The notes under the pieces are model-generated. The model had not been told where the DNA came from and ran no database searches. It was given only the letters and a program-made list of their open reading frames with translations. The translations under genes were made by a program, and so were the position numbers. Positions 30,867 through 57,763 of a stretch of DNA of 64,000 bases are shown in pieces (the first letter of the stretch is position 1; every line of letters starts with the position of its first letter). Where the stretch lies: positions 275,358 to 339,357 of the forward strand of contig CAVURN010000005.1 in assembly GCA_963743915.1 (NCBI GenBank), given 5' to 3'. This DNA comes from an uncultured Actinomycetota bacterium. Its GTDB lineage: Bacteria > Actinomycetota > Actinomycetes > JAHEKZ01.

Positions 30867-30950
30867 GGTGCCCGGAGTGGGACTCGAACCCACACGCCTT
30901 GCGGCAGACCATTTTAAGTGGTCCGCGGCTGCCAGTTACGCCATCCGGGC
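30867..30950 (-). tRNA. tRNA-Leu (anticodon TAA), class II with long variable arm
   Basis: folded by hand: acceptor GCCCGGA/TCCGGGC, anticodon stem GACCA/TGGTC with loop CTTAAAA, T-arm GGGTTCGAGTCCC; CCA not encoded. Confidence 0.85.
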
Positions 30951-32416: not shown

Positions 32417-33142
32417 TCAGAGTTCCGCCAGCACGCGTGCGCGGGCAAAGATCTCGTCGAGCATCGGTGCCGTGAGACGCCCAGTGAAGGTGTTCTGTTG
32501 GCTCGGATGGAACGAGCCCAGCAACGTGACCCTTCCCAGCCCGACCTCGGCCCCGTGGCTGAACCGCGGACGGGGCCGGGGCACGCTCTCGCCCGCCCGC
32601 GCCAGTGCGCCGAGTCCGGCCGTCCAGCCGAACGCCCCGAGGGCGACGACGACCCGGACGCCGGGCAGCAGCCGCAGCTCGGCGTCCAACCACGGGGCGC
32701 AGGTGTCCCGCTCGAGCGGAGTTGGTTGGTTGGCGGGCGGCGCGCACCGCACCGCAGCCGTGATGCGGACCCCCGAGAGCGCGAGGCCGTCACCGACGGA
32801 CACCGAGGTCGCCTGGTTCGCCAACCCGGCCCGGTGGAGGGCGGCATAGAGCCAGTCACCGCTGCGGTCCCCCGTGAACATGCGGCCGGTGCGGTTCGCT
32901 CCATGTGCCGCGGGCGCGAGACCGACCACGAGGATGGACGCGTCCGCATCGCCGAAGCCCGGCACGGGGCGTCCCCAGTAGTCGTCGGCGGCGAAGGCCC
33001 TGCGCTTCTCACGCGCCACCCTCTCGCGCCACTGCACCAGCCGAGGGCACGCGCGGCACCCCGTCACGCGCTCGTCGAGCTCGGCCAACGACGCAGCGGT
33101 GGCGGCTTCGCGGATGACGTCGCCGACAGAGCTGGGCGTCAC
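32417..33142 (-). CDS. uracil-DNA glycosylase, family 5 (UdgB-like, 4Fe-4S)
   Basis: [29 protein letters not shown] (GLAPA motif characteristic of family 5), HPSQQN; GTG 33142 overlaps upstream stop (GTGA). Confidence 0.7.
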
Positions 33143-33828
33143 GCCGAGAGGCGTTGATGCAGGAACTCGACGGTGCGGTCCCACGCCAGTGCCGAAGCAG
33201 CCGCGTCGTGGACCTCGGGTCGGTCGTCGTTGAAGAACGCGTGGTGCGTGCCGGGGTAGTCGAAGATCTCGACGGTTCCACCCGCACCCAGGATCGCGGA
33301 ACGCGCCTGCTGGATGCCGGACGCCGCCGAGGTGCCGTCCTCCTCCGAGCAGTGGATCATCGCCGCTTTGCCCTCGTAGTTCGGCCACTTCGGCTCCATG
33401 CGCTCCCACGGCAACGCCGGGTAGAAGGCGACCGCGGCGGTGAGCTGCGGAGCCAGTGTCCCTGCCCACAGGGCAAGGGAACCGCCCATGCAGAAGCCGA
33501 CGGCGCCGATGGCGTTTCCGTTGGTGGGGTCGCTCTCGAAGAGGAACTGTGCGGCACCGGCGATGTCCTTGGCGGCCGGATCCATCGCGAGCGCCATCAT
33601 CATGCGCATGGCCTCGTCCGGCTCGGTCGTCTTGGCCCCGTGGTACAGGTCGGGAGCCAGCGCCACGAAACCTGCCTCCGCGAACCGGTCGACCACGTTC
33701 TCGATGTGCGGCACCAGGCCCCACCACTCCTGGATCACGACGATTCCCGGTCCCCGCCCGGACGCCGGGACCGCGAAGGCTCCCCCACAGGTGCCGCCGT
33801 TGCTCGAGAACGTCACTCGGTCGGCCAT
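33139..33828 (-). CDS. dienelactone hydrolase family protein
   Basis: [13 protein letters not shown]...[13 protein letters not shown] (nucleophile elbow)...YPGTHHAF; ATG 33828 with AGGAGG RBS. Confidence 0.75.
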
Positions 33829-33987
33829 CGGCCCTCCTGGTCTGACCCAGCGGTGCTGGACCCGTGCTGAACGCGGTGCCGGACACCCTGCTGGGTGCGG
33901 GTGCCGGACGCGGTGCTGGACGCGGTGCTGGAGGAAAGGTACCGGGTGAGCCGGTCCCTGCCGAGGCCTCGCCCACCCCCACCCCAG

Positions 33988-34106
33988 CGGGTGCCCTGTG
34001 ACACCGCCTGCAATCAATGAAGGTTTCGGGGTACCCACGGCTCAGAGGCCGACGTGATGGTGTGGCGATTCCTTCAATCAATGAAGGCGGTGTCACAGGG
34101 CACCCG
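33988..34106. promoter_or_regulatory. 119-bp palindromic element: 21-bp perfect IR arms flanking two 17-bp palindromic boxes CCT(G/T)CAATCAATGAAGG
   Basis: left arm cGGGTGCCCTGTGACACCGCC 33988-34008, right arm GGCGGTGTCACAGGGCACCCg 34086-34106; boxes at 34007-34023 and 34071-34087 (centres 64 bp apart); relatively AT-rich in a 70%+ GC context. Confidence 0.6.
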
Positions 34107-34144
34107 AAACCGGGGGTCAGCGGTGTCGCCCGAACCGCCGAGGG

Positions 34145-35087
34145 TCAGGGCGCGAGGGAGGCGGCGATGCCGTCGAGGATGTCGCGCTCGCTCACCAGCA
34201 CCTCCGGAACGCCGCAGTAGGCCACCACCGCCGACAGCACCAGCGAGCCTGCCGCGATCACGTCGACCCGCCCGGGGTGGATCACCGGGTTGGCTGCCCG
34301 CTTCTCCCGCGTGGAGTAGAGCAGCTCTTCGCAGACGCGGTGCACATCGGCTGCGGTGATCACCGCACCGTGGATCCTGGCGGAGTCGTACTCCCACATC
34401 CCCATCGCCAGCGCAGCCACCGTGGTGACCGACCCGGCCAGGCCGACCAGGGTCGCAGCCTGTCGCAGCGGAACCGTCGTGGCCGCCTCACGAATCGCGG
34501 CATCGATGTCGTCACGCGCCGCAGCCACCTCACCCGGCCAGGGCGGGTCGGTCACGAAGTGGCGCTCGGTCATGCGCACGCATCCGACGTCCACGGACGC
34601 GGACGCGGTGGGCTCACGTCCCGGCTCACCCATCACGAACTCGGTCGATCCACCACCGATGTCGACCACCAGGCAAGGCGGGGCGGCAGTGACGATGTCG
34701 AGGTCGCGCGTGGCGCCCGCGAACGAGAGGGCGGCTTCCTCCGCACCCGAGATCACCTCCGGCTCGACCCCGAGTCGCCCCCGGATGCCCGACACGAAGA
34801 CATCCCGGTTGTCGGCATCACGGGTGGCGGACGTCGCGACGAATCGCAGGGCATCGCGCTCCCGTCGACTCGATGATCCCGGCGTACTCCTCCACCGCTG
34901 CGAAGGTCCTCTCGAGCGCCGCCTCGGACAGGTGACCCGTGGCGTCCACCCCCTCCCCGAGGCGGACGATGCGCATCTCCCGCGCGACGTCGACCAGGAG
35001 TCCCGACCTGTCGTCCACCTCGACGACCAGCAGGCGGACAGAGTTGGTGCCGCAGTCGATCGCGGCGACGCGCCGCGCGCCGCTCAC
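34145..35087 (-). pseudogene. ppx: exopolyphosphatase Ppx/GppA family, frameshifted near 34850
   Basis: N-part VSGARRVAAIDCGTNSVRLLVVEV...EEYAGIIESTG (ORF 34818-35216 frame) and C-part RDALRFVATSATRDADNRDVFVSGIRGRLGVEPEVISGAEEAALSF... (ORF 34145-34795) are in different frames; GTG 35087 overlaps DUF501 stop. Confidence 0.65.
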
Positions 35088-35591
35088 GATGCCGCCTCGG
35101 CGCAGGTCTGCCCGCGTGCCAGCCCGCGTTCGGCGATCTCGCTCAACGCCTCGTCTCCGAACGGGTTGACGCCGGGGCCGGCAGCCAGTGCATGACCGAC
35201 CAGGACGTGCAGACACTTCACCCGGTCCGGCATGCCGCCGGCGGTCACTCCCGCGATCTCCGGCACGTCACCGATCGCCGTGCGCTGCGCCAGGTACGAC
35301 TGGTGCGCCTTCCGGTACGTGGCCGCGAGCTCATCGTCCACCGCGAGCCGCTCCTGCATCTCACGCATGCGCCCCTCGGCCTCGAGCGTGCTGACCGCAC
35401 CGGTCAGGCGGGCACAGGTCAGGTAGTACAAGCGTCGGGAAGGGGGTGCCATCGGGAAGCCGTGGCTCGGTCTCGACCACGTCGGGCTCCCCGCACGCGC
35501 AACGGTGGGCCACTCGGCGCAGACCTCGGGGCTCGCGACCGAGCTGTCGCCGCACTGCGGCGCGGTCCGACTCGGTCACCCCGGGGGGCAT
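35084..35591 (-). pseudogene. DUF501 protein (Rv1025-like), frameshifted near 35428
   Basis: N-part ...RRQLGREPRGLRRVAHRCACGEPDVVETEPRLPDGTPFPTL in one frame, C-part LYYLTCARLTGAVSTLEAEGRMREMQERL...MPDRVKCLHVLVGHALAAG in another; junction acgcttgtactac (one extra nt). Confidence 0.6.
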
Positions 35592-57690: not shown

Positions 57691-57763
57691 GGCTCCCGGG
57701 GGAGGATTCGAACCCCCATTAACGGGACCAAAACCCGCTGTCCTGCCCTTAGACGACCCGGGA
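57691..57763 (-). tRNA. tRNA-Gln (anticodon TTG)
   Basis: acceptor TCCCGGG/CCCGGGA, anticodon stem GCGGG/CCCGT, loop TTTTGGT, T-arm GGGGGTTCGAATCCTCC; CCA not encoded. Confidence 0.85.

Follow-up and report, generated by a model that had tools for sequence, protein, structure and literature searches.

The analyzed stretch of DNA, termed the window in the following, comprises 64,000 nucleotides of an uncultured Actinomycetota bacterium (GCA_963743915.1, contig CAVURN010000005.1). It contains a palindromic element of 119 bp in the spacer between ppx (Ppx-GppA) and the dienelactone hydrolase (DLH) gene. The gene order on the minus strand is mfd, hypothetical, mazG, eno, divIC, DUF501, ppx, element, DLH, UDG, ndh, tRNA-Leu and a BaxI-like gene. 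The ppx-DLH spacer has a length of 316 nt and lies between the ppx stop codon (34145-34147) and the DLH start codon (ATG at 33828). The element begins 38 nt past the ppx stop and is located 160-278 nt before the DLH start codon. This agrees with the original prediction, made from the letters of the DNA alone, which had placed it 160-280 bp upstream of the DLH start (33828) and just 3′ of ppx.

The predicted architecture of two perfect 21-bp inverted arms within 119 bp was found to be exact to the base when the sequence was re-read. The two 17-bp boxes of the 6-5-6 type, described as 64 bp apart, were also recovered, with a start-to-start spacing of 64. The repeat finder extended the inverted repeat to 41 nt per arm, with 85% complementarity and 37 nt between the arms, and the palindrome spans about 120-135 bp overall with its arms perfect. 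With a GC content of 60.5%, and of 52% in its interior, the element lies below the 70.2% of the window; its boxes had been described earlier as AT-rich islands in DNA of more than 70% GC. A single open frame runs across the element and is an upstream extension of the UDG frame.

The element is not an assembly artefact, because the whole structure is present in an independent assembly of a related strain (L134) and its right half in that of another (L001). The coordinates of all features are given in Table 1.

Table 1. Positions in the window of the palindromic element, its parts and the adjacent features.
Feature	Position	Strand	Remarks
Palindromic element, 119 bp	33988-34106	- (sense strand of the flanking genes)	Sequence, repeat finder, folds
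DLH-proximal arm, perfect, 21 nt	33988-34008		CGGGTGCCCTGTGACACCGCC on the plus strand
ppx-proximal arm, perfect, 21 nt	34086-34106		GGCGGTGTCACAGGGCACCCG on the plus strand, exact reverse complement of 33988-34008
Box 1, CCTGCA-ATCAA-TGAAGG, imperfect 6-5-6 palindrome	34007-34023		CCTGCAATCAATGAAGG; identical in L134 and L001
Box 2, CCTTCA-ATCAA-TGAAGG, perfect 6-5-6 palindrome	34071-34087		CCTTCAATCAATGAAGG; centre oriented as in box 1
Loop between the boxes, 47 nt	34024-34070		6/47 differences between window and L134, one of them an indel
Stem extension CCCCAG (plus strand)	33982-33987		Folds; pairs with 34110-34115
Stem extension CCGGGG (plus strand)	34110-34115		Folds; partner of 33982-33987
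Possible partial direct duplicate of flank and ppx-proximal arm	34120-34137	-	CGGTTCGGGCGACACCGC; gap-tolerant local alignment, p about 0.013
ppx (Ppx-GppA), 3′ part, last gene of the eno-divIC-DUF501-ppx block	34145-34795	-	Open reading frame and Pfam
DLH gene, first gene downstream	33139-33828	-	Followed by UDG at 32417-33142
CCGGTACCTT motif, putative -10 region (TACCTT) of the DLH promoter	33936-33945	-	47 bp downstream of the element
Degenerate 12-bp tandem array, 6.9 copies, presumed DLH leader	33850-33932		GCGGTGCTGGAC; length varies between strains

Folding and conservation of the stem

The palindrome is real and lies far beyond chance. It is the top inverted repeat of the entire window; the 20-mer arm was matched 2 times in the window (0.03 expected from shuffles) and the box 3 times (0.01 expected). 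The RNA fold of the element reaches -82 kcal/mol, with a z-score of -9.1 on the minus and -8.3 on the plus strand, and the fold as single-stranded DNA has a z-score of -8.0. A covariance model, R1, scored 143 bits on the element on the minus strand. In an alternative fold the boxes form two local hairpins, at a cost in stability of only 6-7 kcal/mol relative to the long hairpin.

The boxes are direct repeats inside inverted arms, since they are identical at 16 of 17 positions in direct and at 13 of 17 in inverted alignment. The mismatches of the long hairpin are accordingly restricted to one half-site position and three positions of the asymmetric centre, which carry the same base on the same strand in both arms. 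Under plain inverted duplication followed by random decay, the probability of such direct box centres was estimated post hoc to be about 2e-5.

None of the Rfam families reached the gathering threshold in the region of the element when the window was scanned. At a permissive E-value the best matches were MIR5070 (44 bits, threshold 100) and MIR1437 (27 bits, threshold 168), all of them below threshold. Homology to these plant miRNAs was rejected and the matches were regarded as generic for long hairpins, because any 40-bp hairpin scores on such models. Curiously, the MIR5070 match (33987-34107) and the arm have the string GGGTnCCCTnTGACnCnGC in common (15 of 21 positions, in addition to compensated pairs).

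Next, the element was compared with its ortholog in L134, an independent metagenomic assembly (JGI sample 3300082266) with a synonymous third-position divergence of 0.209 from the window. The full copy at 4967-5086 of L134 folds equally well (-85.6 kcal/mol, z-score -5.8). It starts 2 nt past the ppx stop compared to 38 nt in the window, its stem extension consists of a different C-run/G-run, and a 1-nt indel breaks the open frame mentioned above. For the whole element, 9 substitutions and 1 indel were counted in 119 nt. The paired part, i.e., arms and boxes (element positions 1-36 and 84-119), differs at 4 of 72 positions, whereas the changes in the loop (6/47) correspond to about the neutral rate.

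For comparison, 46 of the 220 synonymous third positions of DLH and 23 of 121 positions of the downstream non-coding flank (plus 41 gap columns) differ between the two sequences. The paired part is more conserved than the synonymous sites of DLH (Fisher p = 0.002, binomial 3e-4) and than this flank (p = 0.0096). Conservation ends where the stem ends, and the outer arms are conserved as strongly as the boxes, for which 1 change in 34 nt was found within the clade. Across the two copies 96.9% of the cells are still paired, and one change in the arms converts U-A to U-G. The best-supported reading of this comparison is that the stem is probably kept under selection while the loop is free to vary.

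The one altered box is the L134 counterpart of box 2, in which a half-site differs (sense-strand sequence CCTTCATTGATCGAAGG). Of the 4 boxes in window and L134, the two strains with a full copy, only 1 is therefore a perfect palindrome.

Occurrence in relatives, origin and copy number

For the analysis of the distribution, orthologous loci were retrieved through DLH and Ppx homologues. The synteny eno-divIC-DUF501-ppx-DLH-UDG-ndh was found to be constant. A full copy is present in L134 (spacer 256 bp, DLH 96% identical to that of the window on the amino acid level) and the right half in L001 (DLH 97%), whose contig starts inside the loop. L001 is a short-read contig (ENA ERZ27272652 k141_360865), in which the assembly break at position 1 thus coincides with the hairpin.

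The element is absent from the eight remaining relatives, the spacers of which were all read directly. Their lengths are 59 bp (L002/L003, DLH identity 83%), 88 bp (L005/L006, 85%), 90 bp (L130/L131, 83%), 93 bp (L132/L133, 83%), 99 bp (L129, 82%), 125 bp (L135, 92%), 130 bp (L004, 89%) and 174 bp (L007, 84%). For a further relative (P0015 contig, DLH 82%), known from gene calls and not from DNA, the called genes leave a spacer of 38 bp. Apart from the ribosome binding site and a CCGGTACCTT(G/T)C motif, the spacers of the relatives are essentially unalignable, and no significant alignment to the element was obtained except for the left half in L135 and, weakly, for L132. Judged by these spacers, the element is a gain in one narrow clade consisting of the window strain, L001 and L134.

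In the same ppx-DLH spacer of L007 (GCA_045807165.1), an unrelated nested hairpin of 96 nt was found at 2835-2935 (z-score -4.3). The presence of unrelated hairpins at the same place in relatives points to the turnover of a structural feature and not of a sequence motif. The L004 spacer contains two direct repeats of CGCCGAGTGCAC, a motif that recurs as the outer arm of the hairpin in L007.

In the outgroup L135 (dS, i.e., synonymous divergence, 0.35) the hairpin is missing. Colinearity of its spacer with the window extends over the left flank, the left arm, box A and the beginning of the loop. The similarity of this left half amounts to about 68% identity (p about 0.001-0.003 from dinucleotide shuffles, with eight relatives tested). 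Such a value is close to what neutral divergence from a shared ancestor would give, and it speaks against a clean insertion of all 119 bp. A possible partial duplicate of the arm was additionally detected in the window: CGGTTCGGGCGACACCGC resembles the left flank and arm, CGGTTTCGGGTGCCCTGTGACACCGC, with a gap of 7-8 nt, and lies inside a 26-nt stretch that is missing from L134. The left half in L135 together with the other local duplications, i.e., the partial arm duplicate and a 12-bp tandem array, weakly favours a local origin, presumably by slippage or template switching.

Further copies of the element were searched in several datasets. Neither the arm, nor the box, nor the unfiltered covariance model R1 revealed a second copy in the 64-kb window, and R1 found only the known copies in about 70 kb of the relatives' loci. 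The 20-mer arm had 0 matches in 185,579 GTDB representative genomes and the 17-mer arm 0 matches in viral contigs. Comparison of the element and the half-element with plasmids and phages by blastn yielded nothing, or chance matches of 18-19 nt inside genes, and the translated open frame across the element had no counterpart among 5.8 billion called proteins. No parent insertion sequence (IS) with the ends of the element (GGGTGCCCTGTGACACC) was found in these searches.

In the JGI metagenomes the 20-mer arm was matched once; this collection does not include the sample of L134, so that the negative result is weak. The match is located at 2351-2370 of the contig L008 (JGI Ga0182024_10251032), which ends with the 20-mer arm GGGTGCCCTGTGACACCGCC, followed by AA. 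The contig is unrelated, has a GC content of about 50% and carries a PAS histidine-kinase gene. About one such match is expected by chance, yet its position at a contig end is suspicious, and either chance or a broken related repeat may account for it.

The flanks of the element (CCCCAG and AAACCG on the plus strand) contain no direct repeat of 2-10 bp and thus no target-site duplication; instead, they prolong the inverted repeat. A clean empty site was not found either, as the closest outgroups lack the hairpin and have spacers that are unalignable across the element. Many copies flanked by target-site duplications, which according to the original prediction would indicate a mobile element instead of an operator, were thus not encountered in the data searched, in which the window represents 64 kb of the host genome.

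Promoter-like motif and neighbouring genes

The CCGGTACCTT motif is the only segment of the spacer that is conserved between the window and L004 or L130 (p = 0.01 and 0.03, respectively). As CCGGTACCTT(G/T)C it is common to the window, L001, L134, L004, L130 and L007, where L001, L134 and L007 were assigned by eye. The motif is located at 150-159 in L004, at about 1140-1150 in L130 and at about 2964-2973 in L007; L135 reads CCGGTAGCGTGC. The motif likely represents the -10 region (TAnnnT) of the DLH promoter. A scan of 33700-34300 for the sigma-70 promoter consensus found nothing. The motif is absent from L002, L005, L129 and L132, which may use a different promoter. The tandem array GCGGTGCTGGAC is positioned between the promoter-like motif and the ribosome binding site of DLH and is ~37 nt shorter in L001 and L134.

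According to the Pfam scan of its open reading frames (ORFs), the window represents a core housekeeping region. No transposase, RAYT, integrase or Y1-transposase domain and no one-component or other helix-turn-helix regulator domain was identified in the scanned ORFs, several of which had no Pfam match. An exact look-up of the DLH protein of the window returned no record.

Frame changes were observed in two neighbouring genes. In ppx (34145-35216) frame -3 over 35078-34860 is followed by frame -1 over 34855-34154, and in DUF501 (35102-35585) frame -3 over 35585-35433 is followed by frame -1 over 35491-35102. The orthologues of both genes are intact in the relatives; the versions in the window represent either indel errors of a long-read assembly or a pair of adjacent pseudogenes. 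In the public annotation of this genome, Ppx is likewise truncated (216 aa, P0121, encoded on a 582-kb contig). Downstream, a tRNA-Leu(taa) was detected by ARAGORN at 30867-30950 between ndh and the BaxI-like gene, and the sole tRNA listed by the Rfam scan of the window at the gathering threshold was a tRNA-Gln at 57691-57763.

Interpretation of the element

The favoured reading, tentative with a probability of about 0.4, is that of a lineage-specific extragenic hairpin which is maintained by purifying selection and acts as a stem-loop and not as an ancestral operator. Three options had been offered in the original prediction, namely a pair of transcription factor operators, a long stem-loop RNA and a miniature inverted-repeat transposable element (MITE). 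Of these, the stem-loop RNA fits best with respect to the stable fold and the conserved stem. What is observed is the structure at its given position, its confinement to a single clade, and a stem conserved well above the neutral rate, with a loop that is not. The hairpin is very stable on either strand (z-scores of -8 to -9) and unique in the 64 kb. It follows the last gene of a conserved co-directional block and ends upstream of the sole conserved motif of the spacer. Its outer arms, which are needed by no operator model, are as conserved as the boxes. Taken together, the conserved stem, the free loop, the position between two transcription units and the differing hairpins in relatives are best explained by a structural stem-loop. 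The lack of a second copy, a target-site duplication and a transposase gene fits a locus-specific element, and the colinearity of L135 as well as the other local duplications are compatible with a local origin.

The element would have arisen in the ancestor shared by the window strain, L001 and L134, within a spacer that evolves fast, either by a local inverted duplication of ancestral spacer sequence or by insertion. Transcription of the eno-divIC-DUF501-ppx block would enter the element 38 nt past the ppx stop, and a stem of 36-41 bp (about -72 to -82 kcal/mol) would fold in the transcript. The folded stem may then act as a barrier, at which the upstream mRNA would have its 3′ end defined, protected or stabilised, and could shield the DLH promoter (CCGGTACCTT, 47 bp further on) from read-through. 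In this scheme, transcription of the element, a halt of RNA polymerase or of exonucleases at the hairpin and the choice of the relevant strand are inferred.

Extragenic hairpins at operon ends are known as intrinsic terminators and as REP-type (repetitive extragenic palindromic) stem-loops that protect mRNA 3′ ends. The element resembles them as a GC-rich stem-loop located few to 38 nt past the last stop codon and before the next promoter, with a conserved stem and a variable loop. It differs from them in that it has no U-tract, a stem of 36-41 bp compared to 5-15 bp, and AT-rich palindromes within its arms.

Several observations weigh against the favoured stem-loop. A U-tract follows the hairpin on neither strand, and a terminator scan of 33700-34300 found 0 sites; the sequence after the stem is CUGGGGUGGGGG on the sense and AAACCGGGGG on the antisense strand, which contain no U-tract of 7-9 nt. 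Mycobacterial RNA polymerase requires a U-tract at intrinsic terminators in vitro (PMC3993855), which makes canonical intrinsic termination unlikely here. The canonical intrinsic terminator was rejected on this basis; its expected site just past the last gene fits, but the GC-rich hairpin has no U-tract. Moreover, a stem of 41 bp far exceeds the need of termination or mRNA protection. Single mismatches should hardly matter to such a stem, and the strength of sequence conservation is thus not fully explained.

Covariation lends no support either, because only two full sequences exist and no pair is altered on both sides: 29 of 32 pairs are invariant, one changed from U-A to U-G, two are broken and the number of compensatory double changes is 0. 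The wobble-compatible changes inside the element single out no strand, with one in favour of each, and were dropped as a means of strand assignment. Finally, the direct box centres (post-hoc about 2e-5) are not predicted by a plain hairpin. Given the stem size, the strong conservation and these box centres, protein binding or a mobile-element origin is still conceivable.

Possible, if rather unlikely, is a non-autonomous MITE- or REPIN-like element that was inserted in the ancestor of the clade and mobilised in trans, with arms and boxes as recognition sites of a transposase. The length of 119 bp is typical and within the size range of MITEs (under about 300 bp), and the perfect 21-bp terminal inverted repeats, the lack of coding capacity and the GC content below that of the host fit as well. 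The MITE option of the original prediction agrees with the data to this extent but is unproven: no second copy was found in the data searched, and there was neither a target-site duplication nor a clean empty site. The element occurs in one clade only, with spacers of 256-316 bp compared to 59-174 bp in the eight element-free relatives. The contig of L001 breaks inside it, L008, an unrelated metagenome contig, terminates precisely in the 20-mer arm, and the only Rfam similarities, below threshold, are to MITE-derived hairpins. Against such mobility, no second copy was present in any dataset searched (window, relatives' loci, representative genomes, plasmids, phages, viral contigs, proteins), and the scanned ORFs of the window encode no transposase, RAYT or integrase domain. 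In addition, the L134 copy is conserved well above neutral, unlike a dead insertion, and the sequence of L135 resembling half of the element is continuous with its flank and is not an empty site. A missing target-site duplication, which also counts against insertion, is in keeping with mobilisation of the HUH type (RAYT or IS200/IS605-like).

Bacterial MITEs such as Correia/NEMIS, ERIC and RUP are multi-copy elements flanked by target-site duplications (TA for Correia). They share with the element a size of 100-150 bp, terminal inverted repeats, an intergenic location that is often just past a gene and presence/absence between lineages. Their long transcribed hairpin is able to affect mRNA stability or termination. 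The element differs by the lack of a detected target-site duplication, second copy or parent IS.

By analogy, the closest known systems in layout are the REPINs, which have been described mainly in Proteobacteria. They consist of REP doublets that form hairpins in Pseudomonas and enterobacteria and are mobilised by RAYT transposases (PMC3337134, PMC3116915). The likeness comprises an extragenic element of about 90-120 bp, two short imperfect palindromes about 64-71 bp apart within one long, nearly perfect hairpin (PMC3337134), a spacer that is less conserved than the ends and the lack of a target-site duplication. However, REPINs exist in tens to hundreds of copies, compared to one copy of the element in the data searched. 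The two REPs of a REPIN are inverted including the asymmetric centre, with TT in one and AA in the other (PMC3337134), whereas the box centres of the element are direct (ATCAA twice), so that it does not show the orientation of a REPIN and is, in this respect, unlike a mobile element of that type. Furthermore, the 64-kb window contains no RAYT or Y1-transposase-like domain, and the perfect 21-bp arms of the element lie outside the palindromes.

A pair of operators, the reading preferred in the original prediction, is improbable. A dimeric protein would bind both boxes on the same face of the helix and activate or repress DLH-udg, with the arms being incidental or aiding loop formation. Dimeric helix-turn-helix regulators with paired palindromic operators are known from the TetR, MarR, ArsR and MerR types. 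The geometry is suitable, as the two 17-bp 6-5-6 inverted-repeat boxes are AT-rich islands in 70% GC DNA and lie 64 bp apart, an integral number of helical turns. Their centres precede the presumed DLH start site by about 86 and 150 bp, and a conserved promoter-like motif follows downstream of them. Among the three strains of the clade they have hardly changed (1 of 34 nt), and their identical asymmetric centres in the same orientation are not predicted by a plain hairpin.

On the other hand, the conservation upstream of DLH/udgB orthologs that had been proposed as a check extends to the narrow clade only. Because the spacers of the eight more distant syntenic relatives lack the element, it has no ancestral operator role for DLH-udg, and the idea of an ancestral or regulon feature was not supported. 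A search for copies of the box, also suggested earlier, found no further one in the 64-kb window; in genome contigs, the degenerate or exact box had 120+ single matches, scattered across all phyla and never with arm-like flanks, which were attributed to chance. The MarR/TetR/ArsR-type regulators that had been supposed nearby are missing from the Pfam-scanned ORFs of the window, and no regulator gene was found within 8 kb or more. A text search of the literature for the box and arm strings returned only unrelated eukaryotic primers. Only 1 of 4 boxes is perfectly palindromic and L134 breaks a half-site. The embedding of the boxes in a perfect 21-bp inverted repeat is not needed by operators, and the equal conservation of the outer arms is left unexplained by them.

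An even smaller chance is given to a composite cis-element of an undescribed kind, recently born and selected, in which two same-orientation 17-bp palindromic boxes would serve protein or RNA recognition within the perfect 21-bp inverted repeat. It might be a domesticated single-copy relative of REPINs or of IS200/IS605-type ends, with both sub-terminal hairpins read on the same strand. Alternatively, it might act as an RNA or DNA switch between one long and two local hairpins that controls the expression of DLH-udg.

Least probable is that replication slippage or template switching left a by-product without function, young and not yet decayed: the spacer is hypervariable in length and sequence among the relatives (59-316 bp), carries other local duplications (strain-variable 12-bp tandem array, partial arm duplicate) and has a suggested ancestral left half in L135, but at a dS of about 0.21 the divergence of arms and boxes is significantly below that of synonymous sites and of the adjacent non-coding flank, and direct box centres are unlike the outcome of a simple inverted duplication. 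Integron attC, dif/Xer, parS, oriT, retron and CRP/Rex/Zur/MtrA boxes did not match in sequence or context and were discarded.

High-GC actinomycetes mostly lack canonical terminators. If the stem-loop reading holds, the element would be a dated example of a hairpin that was gained after a dS of about 0.35 and conserved over a dS of about 0.21. It would show that a large structural hairpin can arise in an intergenic spacer and be selected within a short evolutionary distance, and would inform on the turnover of operon boundaries in high-GC actinomycetes. Should the element prove to be multi-copy in the full genome, it would represent a new MITE/REPIN-like family of an uncultured actinomycete lineage, in which inverted arms enclose direct boxes, an unusual layout. 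No major picture is altered either way; the practical value of the element is that of an annotation point, marking an operon boundary and a site of assembly breaks, and of a test case for selection on stem-loops.

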